The notes under the pieces were generated by a model. It searched no databases. It was not told the DNA's origin and saw only the letters and a program-made list of their open reading frames with translations. From Candidatus Bathyarchaeia archaeon (GTDB taxonomy: Archaea > Thermoproteota > Bathyarchaeia > Bathyarchaeales > Bathycorpusculaceae), in assembly GCA_038883775.1 (NCBI GenBank), contig JAVZLM010000005.1, forward strand, positions 1-64,000: a DNA stretch of 64,000 nt, in the 5' to 3' direction. Positions 14,131 through 22,550 of this stretch are shown here, piece after piece (the stretch's first letter is position 1; every line of letters starts with the position of its first letter). Both the position numbers and the translations under genes were made by a program.

Positions 14131-14595
14131 CTAAAACTGTTGGAGTACGTCTTTCTTCTCCATAATATACCCACAATAATGACACTTCAAAACCAAAGGA
14201 TCTTCACTTTCAACATAAAACTTAGCCACAACAGGCTCATTACTATTGCTTATACAAGCCGGATTAGCACACTTAATAATGTCCTCAATAACCGTTGGCA
14301 ACTGAACCCTCTGTTTGGCTACAACATTATAATCGCGGATAATGTTAATTGTGGCGTGGGGAGCCAACAAAGCAATTTTATGCACTTCTTGAGGGTTCAA
14401 CTCCCTACCTTCAATCTTTACAATATCCTTAACTTTAAAACGCTTGCTTGGCACGTTAATGGCAATTGTAATAATGCCCTTCTCCCGCCCAGTTATTCCC
14501 AAAATTCTGGCAACATCCAAGGCGTGACCGCCAGTTATGTGGTCTATAACCGTGCCGTCTTTAATTTTTGAAACATGCAGCACCGTCTCGCTCAT
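14131..14595 (-). CDS. pyrI: Aspartate carbamoyltransferase regulatory subunit
   Basis: GTVIDHI, KDIVKIE, CANPACISN, CHYC. Confidence 0.97.
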   Translation of the reverse strand: MSETVLHVSKIKDGTVIDHITGGHALDVARILGITGREKGIITIAINVPSKRFKVKDIVKIEGRELNPQEVHKIALLAPHATINIIRDYNVVAKQRVQLPTVIEDIIKCANPACISNSNEPVVAKFYVESEDPLVLKCHYCGYIMEKKDVLQQF

Positions 14596-14685
14596 GTGTA
14601 ATATTCCCCTTTAAAGAGGCTATATTCTAAACAAGCATAAAAGATTTTAACCGTTCAGCAATTGCTGATAAAAGTTATTTAGTAG

Positions 14686-15633
<948 letters not shown>

Positions 15634-15642
15634 CATTTAAAA

Positions 15643-17856
15643 TTAGACTGAGACAAAACGGTCGAAGGACGTCAGCGTGTCTATTGCTCCACAGGATGGA
15701 CATTTATGCAAAAGCCCGAACCAGCTTCTTTTGCAGTTGAAGCAATAAGTTAGTCTACGGTCATAAGTGAAAAATTTAATGCCGTAGCCTTCGAAAAGCC
15801 GTTTGGTTAGAGCCATAAGTTCTTCGGGTTTATGTTCAGCCTCTCCAAGCTCTATTACGGTTAGGCTTCCACCAGAATAAAGCCTCTGCAGTTCTTGTTC
15901 AAATTTTAAAGATTCTGGACTAATTTTTCCGTCACTTAATGTTAGTTTGCTGACTGTTGAATAGTATGGTTTTTCCCTTGTTCCCAAAAATCGAATTTTC
16001 GCCACGCCGAATCTTTCAATATCCAGCCTCGCCAACCTTTCAGAGGCCTCAAAATCGGGTATTTTCGCCGTGACCAAATGTTTTTCGCATCTTCTGCCAA
16101 TTTTATGCGTATACTCCAGAATGTTTTGCATAATTTCTCGGGCAAACTCCAATGTTCTTTCATCTTCGCCAACCCTTTTTTGGCAAAAGGCTTCAATGGC
16201 TTCTCTTAATCCCGCCAAATTTATTATGCAAGAACAGTTCTCATTTCTAAAATATCTGTCTCCATTAATGTCTTGCAGGAGAAATGGAAGCAAACCTTTC
16301 CCATGCTGTTTAATGGATTTATGCTTGATTTCTAAAGCCCTAGACACCAAATCAAACCGTTCTTTTAATAACTGAAAGAATTTCGCCTTATCACCTTCGC
16401 ACTCATATGCAAGACGTGGCAAATTAAGAGTTGCATGGGCTAATTTTCCAGTGCGCAACGTATCTATTTCCCAATCTCCATCCAAACTCGCCTCAAGCCT
16501 AAATCCAGAAGCGGAGAAAACACTTTGGCTTTCACCCTCTTTTAGAAGATTAGCAAAGTATACTATTCCCTTTTCTGAAACCAGTTGATGCGCCTTAAAA
16601 AATATAGCCTTAGCTTTCTCGTCTTCGAAGGTTTCTGGACGTATTTTCAAAATGAGTTTTGGATTAAGCAAAGGTTTACTGGCACTTTCTTCAATAAATA
16701 TGTCAAGAATAAGGGAAGCCAAAATTTGGCTTTCTTCACAAAAATCACGATAATTGCCTGCTAATTTTCCAGAAACTCCCACGGCTGGTTTGTCTGCGAT
16801 AAAGTCTGGAAAGGTAGGTTCAAGGCTTATGGAAGCGTTCACGTACTGATTTAGGTTAAGGATGAATAAGCGCAGAGCCTCTTTAACCTCTGAGGCGCCT
16901 AAGCCTTTTACAAAGGGAGCAAGGAAAACATTGAAATACTCTAAGGTCTGCGTTTCGCATATTTCTTTAGAAGAATGTAAAAGAACGTTAAAGATGAGGG
17001 AGAGGGCTGTTTCAAAATTTTTAGGCGGAGGAATAGAAGATTGAGAAGCATTTATTTTCTCTAATTTTGAGCCATTCTGGAAGAAAAATCGTAAATCATG
17101 CACTATTTCGCTTGGCTTCAAAATCCAAGAACCAAGCCCACTAATGTGCATTGACCCAGACAGGTGGGCGTCTGCAATATCCCTTGGAAAAACGTTTAGA
17201 AGCGTAAACTCTTTTAAGACGATGTCGCCAGCCGTTTCCTGAATATAAATTGGCCACTGGGGAGTTTTACTTTTCAAATCCACAAGGGCTGCCACATCAT
17301 AAACTGGAAGTCCCAATCTTGTTAGTTTATGTCTGTAATCTTCTAAGCCTTTTTCAATCAAAATTGCGTTTACAACCTCCCTCACAAGGGGCGCCGTTAG
17401 ATACTTGGGTTTTGACTTGAGCAGCCTTTTCTCTGCTTCTTTAGCAACTTTTTGAGCCAAATCGGCAGGCATCTTCGTCTCTCTTATAAGCGAGTTGGCT
17501 ATTTTGCTAACATCAAATTCTTCCACCGTGAATTTGGAAGTGCGGACAAGCATGCCCTTTGGCTTGAAGGCTTTCTTTTCAATACGTTCTGCAACTTCAA
17601 TAACCATCTCACCCAAATCGGTTAAACAATACTTTTTTGCTTCCACATCTGCCTCAATTAAATCAGCCTTCAACAAGAACTTCAAGTGATAAGCAAACCT
17701 TCCAGCGTCCCTTGTAGGATTCATTTTCAAAGAACCCATCAACTCAGTATAGGAAAGTGGACCCCTATCAAAAAGCAAATTCAAAATCTGCAGCCTAAGG
17801 GGTGAAGAAACAGCTTTGAGTATCCTAACTCCCCGCACGCGATGTGGAACAGACAA
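15643..17856 (-). CDS. ArsR-type wHTH + ATP-cone + catalytically degenerate class III (NrdD-like) ribonucleotide reductase fusion
   Basis: SSPLRLQIL...AYHLKFL HTH; VRTS..EEFD..KIANSL..LTAPLVRE ATP-cone; AHLSGSMHI, TLRTG..TLNLPR, YSGG, CFNC..CPSC NrdD motifs; no MGCR, no RxxGY. Confidence 0.85.
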   Translation of the reverse strand: MSVPHRVRGVRILKAVSSPLRLQILNLLFDRGPLSYTELMGSLKMNPTRDAGRFAYHLKFLLKADLIEADVEAKKYCLTDLGEMVIEVAERIEKKAFKPKGMLVRTSKFTVEEFDVSKIANSLIRETKMPADLAQKVAKEAEKRLLKSKPKYLTAPLVREVVNAILIEKGLEDYRHKLTRLGLPVYDVAALVDLKSKTPQWPIYIQETAGDIVLKEFTLLNVFPRDIADAHLSGSMHISGLGSWILKPSEIVHDLRFFFQNGSKLEKINASQSSIPPPKNFETALSLIFNVLLHSSKEICETQTLEYFNVFLAPFVKGLGASEVKEALRLFILNLNQYVNASISLEPTFPDFIADKPAVGVSGKLAGNYRDFCEESQILASLILDIFIEESASKPLLNPKLILKIRPETFEDEKAKAIFFKAHQLVSEKGIVYFANLLKEGESQSVFSASGFRLEASLDGDWEIDTLRTGKLAHATLNLPRLAYECEGDKAKFFQLLKERFDLVSRALEIKHKSIKQHGKGLLPFLLQDINGDRYFRNENCSCIINLAGLREAIEAFCQKRVGEDERTLEFAREIMQNILEYTHKIGRRCEKHLVTAKIPDFEASERLARLDIERFGVAKIRFLGTREKPYYSTVSKLTLSDGKISPESLKFEQELQRLYSGGSLTVIELGEAEHKPEELMALTKRLFEGYGIKFFTYDRRLTYCFNCKRSWFGLLHKCPSCGAIDTLTSFDRFVSV

Positions 17857-17957
17857 AGGCTCAACCCCCGGCCAGATAAAGGCAATTAGCGAAATAAGGG
17901 TTTAAAAGTTAAGAACACTTTATACTTATATGCTTTTCAATCCTAAATCCTCAAAGA

Positions 17958-18035
17958 GGGGCTGTCGGCTAGCTTGGTCTAGGCTTGGAGACTCGGGCTC
18001 TCTAGACCCCGGTTCAAATCCGGGCAGCCCCACCA
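17958..18035 (+). tRNA. tRNA-Pro (CGG), CCA encoded
   Basis: GGGGCTG/CAGCCCC acceptor stem, loop CTCGGGC, GGTTCAAATCC. Confidence 0.93.
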
Positions 18036-18123
18036 CATTGTAGATTATCCGCCTTTATTATTCGAAATGCTTAAATCAAATAAGGCTCCGTTGATGTTAA
18101 ATATGCTAGGATGTGAATTTGAA

Positions 18124-19536
18124 TTGCTTGAAAGTATGAAAGAAAAAATCGAAAACCTTATTGCTACAGTGATGACGGAAGCTCGCGCACCAGGATTGAG
18201 TCTTGCGGTAGTGAGAGATGATCAGTTAATTTACGCTCGTGGATTTGGATCTAAAAATTTAAAAATGAATCTACCTGCAACTCCTGATACTTTGTATGGG
18301 ATTGGATCTTGTACGAAGTCTTTTACTGCTCTAGCTATAATGCAATTGGCAGAACAGGGAAAACTTGATGTGCATGACCCCGTTAGTAAACATCTTCAGC
18401 AATTTAAACTAAAAGGTAAAAATGACAAGCAAATAACAATACATCACTTGCTAACTCACTCTTCAGGAATACCGAATCTTGGGATGGCTGAAATCCTCAT
18501 ACGAAGAATGGCGGACCTAGGCGAGTACTTCATTCCTTTGAGCAGCGCAGATGATCTTTTCTTACATCTTAATGGAGCACAAGAGGAAATAACAGCAGAA
18601 CCTGGCGAGAAATTCTTTTACTTCAATGAGGGGTATACACTGCTTGGCATGATTATTGAAAAAGTTAGTGGAATGAACTACGAAGATTATGTTCGAGAAA
18701 AAATCTTGAAGCCACTAAAAATGAATAGATCCACATTCATTAAGGAAGAATTTGAGAAGGACAATGACATTATGGTACCCTACATTGTGGAGGCAAAAGA
18801 AGGCGAAATAAAAGCAATTTCCGCTACCCACCCATTTGATAAGTTCATATATGCCCCGGGTGGTTTGTTAAGTTCAGTTGCTGAATTGGCTCACTATCTT
18901 GTTGCAAATATGAATGGCGGTGTTTATGAAAACGTTAGACTTATAGATGCAATTTTCCTAGCTAAAATGCATGAGCCATACATAAAGACGGGTTTCCGTT
19001 GGCTTTTTGGTGAAGAGGCGAAATATGGATATGGGTGGATGATTACAGAAAACTTTTTTGGGCATAAAATTGTTGAGCATGGAGGAAGCACCGGATTATC
19101 AAGCGCTGAATTGGCATTCATGCCTGACCAAAAAATAGGAGTAGCTGTTGCAAGCAATATCAGTGGAGGAGGTTTAATATCTTTTATACCCGTGGCTGTT
19201 ATGGCGTTATTCCTGGGCAAAGATCCTGAAAAAGATGTTCCTACGTTCAAAGCTGAAAAAACAATGAACATGCTAACGGGCGAGTATGCGTCTTACAAGG
19301 GCATACATAAGATATCAGTTGTAAAGAAAATGGGACTGTTATACTTGGAGTCAAAAGAAAAATTCTTTGAAATTTCTGCGCCATTAATCCCAGAAAGAGA
19401 TGACATTGAAAACTTAAAGTTTTACGTTCCTGAACTTGGCGGTACAAAGTTGCCTGTGGAATTTGAAGTCGGTCCAGATGGCAAAATTGACCTATACTTA
19501 GAACGAACTCGATTTCATAAAACTAAAACCCCATAA
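18124..19536 (+). CDS. Serine hydrolase, beta-lactamase class C/Pab87-like peptidase
   Basis: SCTK (SxxK), YFN, HGG; C-terminal Pab87-type domain. Confidence 0.9.
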   Translation: MLESMKEKIENLIATVMTEARAPGLSLAVVRDDQLIYARGFGSKNLKMNLPATPDTLYGIGSCTKSFTALAIMQLAEQGKLDVHDPVSKHLQQFKLKGKNDKQITIHHLLTHSSGIPNLGMAEILIRRMADLGEYFIPLSSADDLFLHLNGAQEEITAEPGEKFFYFNEGYTLLGMIIEKVSGMNYEDYVREKILKPLKMNRSTFIKEEFEKDNDIMVPYIVEAKEGEIKAISATHPFDKFIYAPGGLLSSVAELAHYLVANMNGGVYENVRLIDAIFLAKMHEPYIKTGFRWLFGEEAKYGYGWMITENFFGHKIVEHGGSTGLSSAELAFMPDQKIGVAVASNISGGGLISFIPVAVMALFLGKDPEKDVPTFKAEKTMNMLTGEYASYKGIHKISVVKKMGLLYLESKEKFFEISAPLIPERDDIENLKFYVPELGGTKLPVEFEVGPDGKIDLYLERTRFHKTKTP

Positions 19537-21478
19537 TAGAGTGTATTAAAACTAGGATTCTAAGAGTTATTCCGCCCAATAGGATTGCAAAGGTTATTTC
19601 GAAGAGTGTTATGTATAACGCTTTTTTCCAGCCAAACTCTCTAGTTAAGGCTGCTATTGTTGAGATGCATGGTATGTAAAACATGGCTACTATTGTGAAG
19701 ACAACCATTTGGATGGGACCGAATCCTGGAATTTCAGCGAAATTTGTTGTTTCAAAAAGCGTTGCAAGCATTATTAGCGTTAATTCTTTCCTTAAAACGC
19801 CAAAAATTAATGTTATTCCAGTAATTGCTGGCAATCCAAGCCACGTAACTGTTATGGGACTTAATAAGTTTGCGGTTGGCTCGAGTAAACCGAGAATTTC
19901 GGCAAGTTTTATGGCGATACTTCCAGCAATTATTAGTGGAAAAGCTATTTTAATGAACTCAGCCAGCCTAAACCACGTTTGCTTCAAAACTGTTCTTAAA
20001 TGTGGCAATCGGTAATCAGACATCTCCATAATTAGCGCTGTGGGTTCGCCTGGCAGCGCTTTGAAGGCAAGTCTTCCGAGGATGAAGATTATGGCTAGGT
20101 TGAAAATGTAAAGGGCTAATGCCCATTGGATTCCTAAATATGTTCCAACTAAACCGAGGATTATAACTGTGCGGGCAGCGCATGGAACAAGCGTTGTTAC
20201 AAAGGCTGCGAGAAGCCTTTCCCTCTGGGTTTCCATTATTCTACATCCCAAACAGGCGGGAACGTTGCATCCATATCCAAGGATTAGGGGGATGAAGGCT
20301 TTTCCATGCAATCCCATTTTATGCATTATGTTGTCCATTAAAAAGGCGACTCGGCTTAGGTAACCCGAGTCTTCAAGGAAATATAATAAAATGTAGAATG
20401 GGACGATGTAAGGCAGTGCTATTGTGACGCCAGCAGTAACGCCCTCAAGAGCGCTCCAAACCAGTTTCCCAAAAATTTCTGTCCCAAAAAAGGCTTCAAA
20501 AATGGGTCTCCAGTTGTAAAACAGATTGTTTAATGCGTCTGAAGTGTATCCTCCAAGGGTGAAAATTGAATAGAATATTAAGAGCAGCGAAAAAGCCATT
20601 ATAGGATATCCCATGATTTTATGGGTTGTAATGTTGTGAAGACGTTCTTCAAATTTTGGCTTTATTGGAGAAACCAGTTTTTGGGCTTCTCTGGCGATAC
20701 AACCGGCAATTTCGTATCGCTCAGAAGTTATCACTGTTGAACAGGAATGTCCATGGAGATTTTCGATTTCTTTTGCAAGTTTTTTGGCTGCAGAAACTAT
20801 TTTTGGGTTAATTTTTGCGATTTCCCTTTCTATTTCTTCGTCTCCTTCCAACAATTTAATTGCCACGTATCTTGGCGAATACCAAAATTGGACGGGTTCG
20901 ATAATTTTTGTGAGTTCGGCTATTTTCTCTTCAACCTCTTCTCCAAATTTTACTGGAACATTCTTCGTCGCTGGTCCTTTTTCAACAACTTCTATTGCCT
21001 TTTCTAAAAGCTGAAAGATGCCAATACCTTTTATTGCCACGGTGGGTATGACTGGTATTCCCAAAAGCTTTTCCAGTTTCTCCACGTCTATTTGGATTCC
21101 CTTTTTCTGCGCCATGTCCATCTGATTTAGGGCTATAACCATTGGGGTTTCCAATTCCATAAGCTGCAGTGTAAAGTAGAGGTTTCTTTCAAGAACCGAA
21201 GCGTCAACAACATTTATTACGACATCTGGTTTTTCCACGGCAATGTATTTTCTTGAAATCAACTCTTCTAGGGAATATGTTGAAAGCGAATAGATTCCTG
21301 GCAGATCGATAATGTCTATGGTGTAGCCCTTAAAGTGGAGTGTGCCTTCAGCCTTTTCCACGGTTTTTCCAGGCCAGTTGCCAATGTGCTGATGCAAGCC
21401 AGTTAAGTGGTTGAATATGACGGATTTTCCAACATTGGCGTTTCCAGCCAAAGCGATGAGCAGCTTCTTTTTAGCCAT
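19523..21478 (-). CDS. feoB: Ferrous iron transporter B
   Basis: [29 protein letters not shown]. Confidence 0.97.
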
Positions 21479-21754
21479 TTACTTTTCTATCTCCACGAAA
21501 ATTCTTTCCGCCATGCCCCTGCCAATAGCAAGCCTTGAGCCTCTAACGAGAATTTCTAATGGTCCATGGAATGGGGCTGATTTTACAACGGTTACTTTTG
21601 TGCCTGGAGTTAAGCCCATATCCATAAGTCGCTTTTCAAATCCCCACCTTCCGCGTCCTCTCCCCCTTCCTCTACCATGTCCCGCTTTTACAGAAATAAC
21701 AATTCCAGTCTCTCCGTCTTTTAATGCGGTCAATGGAACTTCCTGCTTTTCCAT
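21479..21754 (-). CDS. feoA: Ferrous iron transport protein A
   Basis: RLMDMGLTPG, APFHGPL, LAIGRGMA. Confidence 0.95.
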   Translation of the reverse strand: MEKQEVPLTALKDGETGIVISVKAGHGRGRGRGRGRWGFEKRLMDMGLTPGTKVTVVKSAPFHGPLEILVRGSRLAIGRGMAERIFVEIEK

Positions 21755-21768
21755 TCAATCATCAACCT

Positions 21769-22440
21769 TTATTTCAATTGTTTAACTTGGATGACGGAGG
21801 CTATTTGGCGACTTATGGCGTGGCGTGCTGAACTCACCTTCACAGTGATTGGGCCGTCCATGGGAGCTTTATCCAAAACTTCTATGGAAGCTCCTGGCAC
21901 AAGTCCCAACTTGCCCAAATATTGCAGCAAATCCGCTTGTTCGTCTGTTATTTTTACTAAAACGCCTTTTTTGCCTATGGCAAAATCTTTTAGAGGCATG
22001 GACTTTTCTTCCATTATTCCGCCGCATGCTGTGGGGATGGGATTTCCGTGAGGACAAGTTTTTGGATGTTTCAATGCCTTCTCTAAAGGTTTGATTATTT
22101 CTTTTGTTATGCCATGCTCCAACTTGCAAGCGGCATCATGAACCTTTTCCCATTCAATATGCAGAATATCCACAAGCAAACGTTCCGATAAGCGATGCCT
22201 CCTTATAACTTGTAAGGCTATTTTTCTACCCTTTTCCGTAAGTTTAACACCTTTATATGGAGAGTGTGTTAGAAATCCTTCTTTTTCGAGGCGCTCCACA
22301 GTGTTAGTAACCGTTCCAGGAACAACCCCGAGCATCTTGACGATGTCGCTGGTTCTAGCAGCTCCGCTCTTTTCCTCCAGCCTATAGATGCATTCAAGAT
22401 ATTCTTCTGTTACTGCTGTGATTTCTTCGTTTTCAGACAT
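21769..22440 (-). CDS. DtxR/MntR-family metal-dependent repressor with FeoA domain
   Basis: EEYLECIY, RRHRLSE, ACKLEH, TCPHGNPIP. Confidence 0.93.
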   Translation of the reverse strand: MSENEEITAVTEEYLECIYRLEEKSGAARTSDIVKMLGVVPGTVTNTVERLEKEGFLTHSPYKGVKLTEKGRKIALQVIRRHRLSERLLVDILHIEWEKVHDAACKLEHGITKEIIKPLEKALKHPKTCPHGNPIPTACGGIMEEKSMPLKDFAIGKKGVLVKITDEQADLLQYLGKLGLVPGASIEVLDKAPMDGPITVKVSSARHAISRQIASVIQVKQLK

Positions 22441-22464
22441 TTTACGAATTCTCCAAATTAAAAT

Positions 22465-22484
22465 TACGATAAATCGTATATTTA
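22465..22484 (-). promoter_or_regulatory. TATA box with abutting palindrome upstream of dtxR-feoA-feoB (candidate operator)
   Basis: TACGAT-AA-ATCGTA at 22465-22478, next to minus-strand TTAAATAT. Confidence 0.45.
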
Positions 22485-22550
22485 ACATTTCCTAAAAACA
22501 CAAATTTTTTATGCCATCGCCAAAGAAAGAACGCATCCAAGGGAAATTTT

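Follow-up and report, generated by a model that had tools for sequence, protein, structure and literature searches.

A class III ribonucleotide reductase paralogue without catalytic residues, fused to a winged helix and an ATP-cone, as a candidate regulator of nucleotide supply in Bathyarchaeia

Class III ribonucleotide reductases (RNRs), of which NrdD is the catalytic protein, require a glycyl radical and a finger-loop cysteine. In the 64,000-nucleotide stretch of a Candidatus Bathyarchaeia archaeon analysed in this study (the window; contig JAVZLM010000005.1, positions 1 to 64,000), a gene on the reverse strand encodes an NrdD-like protein that has lost the residues for both and carries a winged helix-turn-helix (HTH) and an ATP-cone in front of the NrdD core. 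Proteins of this kind bear the database name 'anaerobic ribonucleoside-triphosphate reductase'; the protein is most likely not that enzyme, but an undescribed regulator of nucleotide-building genes. The source genome comprises 1.69 Mb in 28 contigs and is 91% complete.

Four described systems resemble this protein in part. In NrdR (TIGR00244), a DNA-binding domain is likewise joined directly to a domain of the ATP-cone type and RNR genes are adjacent in many genomes; the logic proposed here, in which the nucleotide state of the cone decides DNA binding, also matches that given for NrdR in the available parts of PMC9110341 and PMC12176259. NrdR has about 150 amino acids, an N-terminal Zn ribbon, and a canonical cone, whereas the present protein has 737 amino acids, a winged helix, a cone without the Lys-Arg pair, and a whole dead NrdD core, and Pfam and NCBIfam searches of it gave no match to Zn_ribbon_NrdR or TIGR00244. 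Class III NrdDs with an ATP-cone from P. copri (PDB codes: 8p2c and 8p2s), S. thermophilus (9dca), T. maritima (4coj), and phage T4 (1hk8) share the fold, the order of cone, linker, barrel, and Zn ribbon, and the NLPR motif. Unlike them, the protein has no thiyl cysteine, second cysteine, radical glycine, or radical-domain tail, has lost the NxN flap, HxHD, loop-2, and PAE motifs, possesses an extra winged helix, and is not accompanied by an adjacent activase. GlyXL, which together with GlyXS is described in the accessible text of PMC13759103 as an oxygen-tolerant glycine-synthesis enzyme, is distant kin of anaerobic RNRs without the radical residues and occurs also in aerobes. The likeness to GlyXL drawn here is one of description; GlyXL, according to the same text, is partnered with an ACT-domain protein and lacks a DNA-binding domain. 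Finally, ArsR/SmtB proteins such as HlyU and ArsR align over the whole winged helix, but they have about 100 amino acids and dimerise via their own helices, whereas in the present protein the domain is attached to about 640 amino acids of sensor and scaffold. No published protein combining a winged helix, an ATP-cone, and a dead NrdD was found in the full-text literature, with subscription-only papers and supplements outside the search, and the available parts of PMC3019208, PMC9531940, and PMC7446807 make no mention of one.

Loss of catalytic residues and domain architecture

The intact NrdD of the same genome served as reference for residue loss (25% identity and E 3e-45 in BLASTP), together with a MAFFT alignment. 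The initial annotation, made from the DNA alone, had described a pseudoenzyme in which the finger-loop cysteine, an upstream cysteine, and the RxxGY motif of the glycyl radical are replaced, and all three replacements are borne out: the column of the lower cysteine holds Glu250 within KPSE, SMCCRLR of the active enzyme stands against SASGFRLE, and the glycine column holds Ser736 of DRFVSV, followed by the stop codon (Table 1). Although BLASTP, MAFFT, and the earlier reading place the finger loop in registers one or two residues apart, this is immaterial because residues 440-481 contain no cysteine at all. The loss extends beyond that list to the motifs for substrate binding. HxHD, which reads HIHN in the active NrdD of this genome, has left only a remnant; in NrdD, as described in the accessible sections of PMC11226230, this motif and the loop after the third-last strand bind the substrate triphosphate. 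The sole NrdG found in the genome lies on another contig (C3) beside the real NrdD, in agreement with the reported absence of an adjacent nrdG. With both cysteines and the glycine absent from its sequence, the protein cannot be a glycyl-radical RNR.

These losses are common to the relatives that carry the winged helix. The residues were tallied in 101 aligned sequences, consisting of 99 of 150 listed representatives (560-810 amino acids), the query, and the NrdD of its genome; a hidden Markov model built from 15 confident members (E<=1e-3) called an HTH in 74 of them and none in 27. None of the 74 HTH-bearing relatives has the lower cysteine, two have a cysteine at either finger column, and twelve have a glycine at the radical column. 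All three radical residues occur together in 0/74, and none of the three in 60/74, whereas 9 of the 27 relatives without an HTH have all three. H.H is retained in two of the 74, and many of the more distant HTH-bearing relatives keep a degenerate C-terminal tail. When 66 dead sequences were compared with nine active ones, the NxN flap, HxHD, A-RGGQ (loop 2), EGD..GKP, mGCR, sPAEst, YYTNS, and RiTGY were not conserved in the dead group, whereas NLPR, the Zn ribbon, and the cone were retained.

The NrdD scaffold is nevertheless complete enough to be recognised by several means, as the initial annotation had proposed. Pfam NRDD matches residues 207-729 with 250.7 bits, covering only profile positions 14-534 of 562 and leaving the glycyl-radical part uncovered, and the NrdD equivalog model TIGR02487 scores 257.6 bits, below its cut-off of 326.35. 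An AlphaFold2 model computed from 81 aligned relatives has a predicted local distance difference test score of 91.7 and a predicted template modelling score of 0.82. Its top Foldseek matches are the NrdDs of P. copri, S. thermophilus, T. maritima, and phage T4 (E 1e-27 to 1e-19), at 16-18% identity and template modelling scores of 0.6-0.77 by target. In the alignment of 81 sequences, N478 of the NLPR motif is invariant, P480 and R481 are nearly so, and the Zn-ribbon cysteines C705, C708, C719, and C722 are nearly invariant; all four cysteines are present in 63 of the 74 HTH-bearing relatives.

At the N-terminus, both HTH_5 (26.2 bits, cut-off 22) and DUF7347 (29.3 bits, cut-off 27.6) match residues 13-87, which confirms the fusion of an ArsR-type winged helix to the NrdD scaffold. 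In the model this domain is made of three helices (residues 19-31, 36-42, and 51-63) and two strands (67-70 and 75-78). The nearest solved sequences are HlyU and ArsR, weak matches at E 0.025-0.1. The helix GRFAYHLKFLL aligns with the ...HL..L helix of HlyU and ArsR, its consensus among the 66 dead sequences is daGkFaYHL, and it would be the helix that contacts DNA. The ATP-cone matches Pfam at residues 102-174, and the model has the topology of a cone, with strands at residues 103-105 and 111-113 followed by four helices. The gene starts with TTG, and at the equivalent position its ortholog at locus L008 has ATG.

Other NrdD-like proteins met in the searches deserve mention in their own right. 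One set (P0214, P0218, P0227, P0232, P0253-P0255, P0263, and P0265) has no winged helix, Zn ribbon, or radical domain, mostly retains HxH and sometimes the lower cysteine, and looks like another non-radical lineage. At locus L055 (G004:C5), the NrdD-like gene downstream of the winged-helix copy lacks the radical glycine (SRSIAFYG) and the finger-loop cysteine, so that this genome has two non-radical copies in tandem adjoining pyrB/pyrI; P0229 is a relative of the second copy. Homologs of 1000-1700 amino acids (P0167, P0170, P0178, P0180, P0182, P0208, P0216, P0222, and others) match the query in two to four separate stretches, end in RITGY, and probably carry inteins.

Distribution, selection, and the RNR genes of the genome

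Of 8000 candidates scored in a word-indexed search, 2066 were relatives at E<=1e-3, and the best 120 of these 2066 share 65-90% identity and the same architecture, their named sources being Bathyarchaeia records. An exhaustive search of representatives clustered at 50% identity gave 2021 matches, of which 400 lie below 1e-30. Overall, there are hundreds of full-length relatives, down to 30% identity. The gene is present in all 25 sampled genomes of its own family and, at E<=1e-20, in 290 of the 401 genomes sampled from the phylum Thermoproteota, a count that takes in matches to active NrdDs; the winged-helix form itself is spread across many families of the phylum. Representatives resembling the form in f15, a Nitrososphaerota-like family, are named 'ArsR family transcriptional regulator [Thaumarchaeota / Nitrososphaerota archaeon]' or 'ribonucleoside-triphosphate reductase' at their source.

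In a FastTree phylogeny that included the HTH columns, the 66 winged-helix sequences fell on one side of a single branch (support 89). Two changes were needed when the HTH columns were removed, although a single change is still compatible with that result, in what is a quick tree with long branches. A single origin of the winged-helix sequences appears likely from these trees. Their closest active relatives are archaeal NrdDs with a VRTS cone hairpin.

The ratio of nonsynonymous to synonymous substitution rates (dN/dS), a check that the initial annotation had suggested, is 0.086 overall against the closest ortholog (L005) and 0.108 against L004, that is 0.09-0.11 and purifying selection; the gene is selected and is not decaying. 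By domain, the least saturated pair (L005) gave ratios of 0.024 (HTH), 0.030 (cone), and 0.109 (core), so that the core changes at about four times the pace of the two N-terminal domains. One in-frame stop was seen in each of two orthologs, those of G324:C9 (L045; TAA) and G228:C29 (TAG), which could be real inactivation or an assembly error. Contigs from two runs labelled metatranscriptomic, although flagged 'probably DNA', were 90-99% alike and are no evidence of expression.

The search for a separate intact RNR, also suggested earlier, succeeded twice. On contig C3, NrdR (TIGR00244, 162.6 bits), NrdD (NF006126, 1096 bits; TIGR02487, 589.4 bits), and NrdG (TIGR02495, 189.7 bits) stand in a row, all above their curated cut-offs, and contig C4 carries a B12-dependent class II NrdJ (TIGR02504, 761.8 bits), likewise above its cut-off. 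An archaeal-type NrdD partner was not found in this genome (91% complete), which has only two PF13597 matches. NrdR exceeds its cut-off in 25 of the 401 genomes of the phylum sample, namely this one and 24 of the 25 sampled from its family, and in none of the 375 others, so that the only NrdR-bearing family in the sample is the family without an archaeal nrdD beside the dead gene. This fits a replacement of the archaeal nrdD by the nrdR-nrdD-nrdG operon in this family, and suggests that the operon was acquired laterally; its source may have been bacterial.

Two genomes of the same family, 100% and 96% complete, keep the dead gene, and no nrdJ was found in them. Since the gene is kept alongside NrdR and also in genomes without nrdJ, its function can be neither redundant with that of NrdR nor limited to one class of RNR. 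NrdR and the dead protein coexist in this genome and in 24 of the 25 sampled family genomes; therefore, they are not simple substitutes for each other.

Two elements were observed at these RNR genes. Just upstream of the likely true start of nrdR (contig C3, L001:3950-4130, about C3:141574-141605) there is a dyad, ACATTTAGTGT-N17-ACACTAAATTGT, which falls within a longer open reading frame call starting at TTG and may represent the NrdR boxes of the nrdR-nrdD-nrdG operon; genome-wide, ACACTAAAT pairs as a dyad only upstream of nrdR. Directly upstream of nrdJ lies a small rubredoxin-like open reading frame (WECTVCGY...CPVCG), in this genome (L003:700-880) and in many family members (L070-L085), and the nrdJ promoter element GAAAnCTTTATAT is conserved.

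Gene neighbourhood and promoters

The initial annotation placed the gene against pyrB/pyrI. It does meet pyrB, tail to tail, and pyrI lies beyond pyrB; pyrI and pyrB diverge from a 105-base spacer and do not form a pyrBI operon (14131-15633). Among 15 loci found in named Bathyarchaeia at 59-91% identity, the arrangement with pyrB recurs in all 13 that reach downstream and pyrI is present in 9 of the 13, and the upstream genes differ in nearly every locus. In 30 loci taken from across the phylum, pyrB adjoins the gene at 23/23 loci of its own family.

Eight further loci were fetched because they have two adjacent NrdD-like matches and are thus a biased set. At six of them (L049-L054) the next gene downstream of the dead one encodes a full archaeal-type NrdD with RITGY. 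Downstream of this NrdD, L049 has a thioredoxin-like gene and then a convergent pyrB with pyrI, and L050 and L051 have pyrB and pyrI. The simplest reading is that the ancestral cluster was dead-nrdD / nrdD(-nrdH) / pyrB-pyrI and that the family of the window lost the active nrdD. The loss of the active nrdD from the old cluster is then why the dead gene touches pyrB: the contact reflects inherited order and not a shared promoter. As the dead paralogue was kept after the archaeal nrdD was lost, its job cannot be the control of that lost neighbour only.

Twelve more loci of the phylum were picked blind to their neighbours. The five from f15 all adjoin nrdJ, which is co-directional and downstream in four and divergent in one. 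Both loci from f28 adjoin a carbamoyltransferase of 31% identity, pyrI adjoins in f22, and f34 has the pyrI/pyrB/dead-gene arrangement seen in the window; by locus, L066 has a pyrI neighbour and L068 has pyrB/pyrI. New here are the following: in other Bathyarchaeia the dead gene precedes an archaeal-type nrdD(-nrdH) converging on pyrB/pyrI; the family of the window has lost this nrdD, which left the contact with pyrB; NrdR is confined, in the sample, to that family; and nrdJ adjoins the gene in f15.

The promoter region of the gene lies between its start and a divergent tRNA-Pro(CGG), a tRNA also found in 11 of the 15 upstream regions of the named orthologs. Its CTTAAC-TTTTAAAC element may be a TATA box with a B recognition element (BRE), and the conserved form YTAAS.TTTAAAC, which may be a BRE/TATA pair, has nine matches genome-wide, none of them at nrd or pyr genes. 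The core promoter of pyrB, AAAGT(G)TTATTTAG..., is conserved across the family. Between pyrI and pyrB there is a perfect 14-base palindrome, TCAGCAATTGCTGA, which is not conserved in L005-L011. In family f4 (L051-L054), the intergenic region between dead nrdD and nrdD contains conserved blocks upstream of the active nrdD, among them TGTCAA-N10-11-TGTCAA, a direct repeat followed by a TTTTATAC box. Rfam at its gathering threshold found only tRNAs in six loci, and no known RNA in the f4 blocks.

TGATC/GATCA is five to eight times enriched upstream of nrdJ in f15 and is not found in the promoters of the window. Its occurrence upstream of the f15 dead genes was rejected as an operator, since the stretch codes for an N-terminal extension; this apparent extension, rich in Asp, Leu, and Glu and acidic, precedes the winged helix in L057, L058, L060, and L061.

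Beyond pyrI, a conserved trio consists of a radical S-adenosylmethionine (SAM) protein of about 495 amino acids, a rubrerythrin-like protein, and a protein with one membrane segment and a cysteine cluster; the radical-SAM gene recurs in L004-L006, L008-L010, and L012. The radical-SAM protein, the only one encoded near the dead gene, was considered as a hidden NrdG and rejected, since it reached no NrdG model and its B12/radical-SAM NCBIfam matches lie far below cut-off. On the other side of the tRNA lie a Pab87-type protein and then feoB, feoA, and a DtxR-type regulator; a functional link to this feoAB/DtxR neighbourhood was rejected since it is not conserved among the loci.

Table 1. Positions of the NrdD-like gene, its domains and motifs, and the neighbouring features in the window
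Feature	Position	Strand	Basis or remark
Dead nrdD-like gene	15643..17856	-	737 codons and stop; TTG start
ArsR-type winged HTH, residues 13-95	17572..17820	-	Pfam HTH_5 and DUF7347
Probable recognition helix GRFAYHLKFLL, residues 52-62	17671..17703	-	Group consensus; alignment with HlyU/ArsR
Divergent ATP-cone (beta-hairpin and four helices) with linker, residues 102-178	17323..17553	-	Pfam ATP-cone; model
NrdD alpha/beta-barrel core without catalytic residues, residues 207-700	15757..17238	-	Pfam NRDD; model; Foldseek
MHISG, remnant of the HxHD substrate-triphosphate motif	17137..17151	-	HIHN in own active NrdD
KPSEIVHD, position of the lower catalytic Cys (Glu250)	17095..17118	-	Aligned to GPYCVGWD of own NrdD
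SASGFRLE, finger loop without the thiyl-radical Cys	16492..16515	-	Aligned to SMCCRLR of own NrdD
NLPR barrel motif, common to dead and active NrdDs	16414..16425	-	Alignment of 81 sequences
C-terminal Zn ribbon CxxC...CxxC, residues 705-723	15688..15744	-	Conserved Cys
DRFVSV and stop, remnant of RxxGY (Gly to Ser736, tail absent)	15646..15663	-	YSRVVGYL aligned to FDRFVSV
Promoter region between dead gene and tRNA-Pro	17857..17957	-	Conserved CTTAAC-TTTTAAAC element at 17900-17912
pyrB (aspartate carbamoyltransferase)	14701..15633	+	Pfam OTCace_N and OTCace; convergent, 9 bases between stop codons
pyrI (regulatory chain of aspartate carbamoyltransferase)	14131..14595	-	Pfam PyrI and PyrI_C; beyond pyrB, divergent from it
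Palindrome TCAGCAATTGCTGA	14655..14668		pyrI-pyrB intergenic
tRNA-Pro(CGG)	17958..18035	+	Divergent, upstream of dead gene
Radical-SAM protein, 498 amino acids	11530..13026	+	
Rubrerythrin-like protein, 141 amino acids	13167..13592	-	
Protein of 110 amino acids	13670..14002	-	One membrane segment; Cys cluster
Pab87-type serine beta-lactamase-fold protein with octamerisation domain, then feoB, feoA, DtxR-type regulator	18067..19536 and 19523..22488	+ and -	

Proposed function and alternative explanations

With a confidence slightly above even, the non-catalytic archaeal class III RNR paralogue is held to be a DNA-binding regulator of nucleotide-supply genes, namely those of RNR and probably pyrB/pyrI. 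Among the results that speak for this reading are the recurrent adjacency to nrdD, nrdJ, or pyrB/pyrI across the phylum and a purifying selection that acts hardest on the winged helix and the cone. One possible scheme is as follows. The NrdD core, as in all solved NrdDs, would serve as a dimer scaffold, and a two-fold operator would then face a pair of winged helices. The cone next to the winged helix, which is conserved, may bind a nucleotide or a related phosphorylated ligand, and the presentation of the two DNA-binding domains would change with binding, in analogy to NrdR and to P. copri NrdD, for which the accessible text of PMC11226230 reports ATP/dATP-dependent contacts between cones.

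In this scheme, sensing would likely fall to the cone rather than to the classical specificity site. Of the 38 alignment columns that are invariant or nearly so, 20 fall in residues 104-187, which make up the cone and linker, and R105, S107, E112, R159, R175, and R180 are among the conserved residues. The hairpin of the cone reads VRTSKF, in contrast to VRKRDG in the NrdD of the same genome (canonical V.KRDG). Since a set of active archaeal NrdDs also has VRTS, this hairpin is a trait of the lineage and not a sign of decay, and nucleotide binding by the cone is plausible on the strength of its conserved residues. Thus, of the two sensing features in the initial annotation, the presence of an ATP-cone stands in its Pfam match, its topology, and its place as the most conserved part of the protein, but not with canonical residues or a match to a solved cone. 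The use of RNR 'allosteric sites' in the plural is not supported, because the specificity-site motif is not conserved in the dead group.

Several observations weigh against the reading as a nucleotide-responsive regulator. The Lys-Arg of the canonical hairpin is Thr-Ser here, while Lys7, Arg8, Arg87, and Arg91 hold the triphosphates in P. copri NrdD, as far as the available portions of PMC11226230 describe. The Pfam score of the cone is only just above cut-off (32.1 against 25.8 bits), and a sequence search with the cone segment alone matched no solved ATP-cone. For these reasons nucleotide binding by the cone is an assumption. The loop-2 motif A-RGGQ of active NrdDs, part of the specificity site, has not been conserved either. 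The genome already has an NrdR, with a dyad before its own operon. The contact with pyrB is convergent, includes no shared promoter, and can be explained by inherited gene order; pyrB lies within 1.5 kb at none of seven loci from two other families, one of which is f5, and in the blind set the three loci of f21 have no nrd or pyr gene within about 7 kb. Furthermore, no operator was found, the promoter of the gene having no motif in common with the upstream regions of pyrB, nrdR, or nrdJ. This search covered the upstream regions of the 15 named orthologs, the 30 phylum loci, the pyrB/pyrI and dead-nrdD/nrdD intergenic regions, and the region upstream of nrdJ in 17 genomes of the family. No 7-mer was shared by the promoter of the gene and the region upstream of pyrB within a genome in more than 3 of 23 genomes, and an NrdR-box core, with up to two mismatches, gave 293 single matches and no pair.

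The protein could instead be a transcription factor whose signal is not nucleotides but, for example, metal or redox state, sensed by the ArsR-type domain or by the Cys4 Zn ribbon; its association with nucleotide genes would in that case reflect inherited order only. In favour of this, nucleotide-binding residues could not be verified, proteins of the ArsR/SmtB kind, to which the winged helix belongs, mostly sense metals or redox state, the four cysteines are present in most relatives, and the window has feoAB and a DtxR-type regulator just upstream of the gene. However, that neighbourhood is not conserved and the upstream neighbours vary by locus, active NrdDs keep the Zn ribbon, a structural element in them, to the same degree, and the metalloregulator subfamily of ArsR/SmtB is not reached (NF033788, 29 bits against a cut-off of 55). 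The association with nrdD, nrdJ, and pyrBI also recurs in distant families. This alternative is considered unlikely.

The barrel might also have become a different enzyme that uses no radical, perhaps in addition to binding DNA, as bifunctional enzyme-repressors do. GlyXL, in the accessible text of PMC13759103, is a working enzyme although it is related to NrdD and has no catalytic residues; therefore, being dead for RNR chemistry is no proof of being non-enzymatic. The core is under purifying selection (dN/dS 0.11) and NLPR at the centre of the barrel is invariant. Yet the barrel has no new set of conserved polar residues, its conserved positions being those shared with active NrdDs, and its rate of evolution is about four times that of the HTH and the cone. 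The dead state is coupled to a DNA-binding domain in all 74 HTH-bearing relatives, and there was no ACT domain in nine neighbouring or related proteins scanned, the search for an ACT partner not extending to the rest of the genome. The probability of a new enzyme is accordingly put low.

The protein might act by contact with other proteins, regulating or scaffolding an active RNR or aspartate carbamoyltransferase, with the winged helix as a tether to DNA or as another contact; such a role is comparably improbable. NrdDs dimerise via the core, so that a heterodimer with the product of the neighbouring archaeal-type nrdD is possible at L049-L054, and the linkage to pyrB is tight in the family of the window. 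On the other hand, this genome yielded no archaeal-type NrdD, in f15 the neighbouring gene encodes a class II RNR, and dimers of that class form through a different interface (PMC9531940, in the part available), and the strongest selection falls on an ArsR-type winged helix, which argues for sequence-specific DNA binding.

It is very improbable that the protein is still an RNR with another source of radicals, as its full NrdD fold, Zn ribbon, and database name might suggest, since both cysteines and the glycine are absent, the HxHD and PAE triphosphate motifs are lost, the radical domain is cut off, the score falls below the curated NrdD cut-off, and relatives stand beside a class II RNR in genomes labelled Thaumarchaeota/Nitrososphaerota. 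A decaying pseudogene, to which the lost catalytic residues and the in-frame stops in the G324 and G228 relatives might point, is refuted by the open frame of 737 codons, the selection data, and the retention of the gene in every sampled family genome and in hundreds of full-length relatives.

The reading as a DNA-binding regulator of nucleotide-supply genes can be carried further, although only tentatively and with doubt prevailing. The family could be the principal nucleotide-pool regulator of Thermoproteota including the ammonia-oxidising archaea, an independent analogue of NrdR that arose from a copy of the regulated enzyme. It would read (deoxy)nucleoside triphosphates via the cone, perhaps also the relic active site, and co-ordinate RNR of class II or III with pyrB/pyrI, the genes for the first committed step in making pyrimidines. 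If so, its retention beside a later-acquired NrdR would mean that NrdR and the dead paralogue divide the regulon in the family of the window.

To our knowledge, next to nothing is known of how deoxynucleotide supply is controlled in archaea outside the few lineages that bear NrdR. If the protein is a true regulator, it would correct a widespread annotation error, since the current names wrongly credit genomes, those of aerobes included, with a class III RNR, and it would be a clean case of an enzyme turned into a sensor of its own pathway. It would also provide a testable handle on the control of DNA precursors in abundant archaea that are hard to grow.

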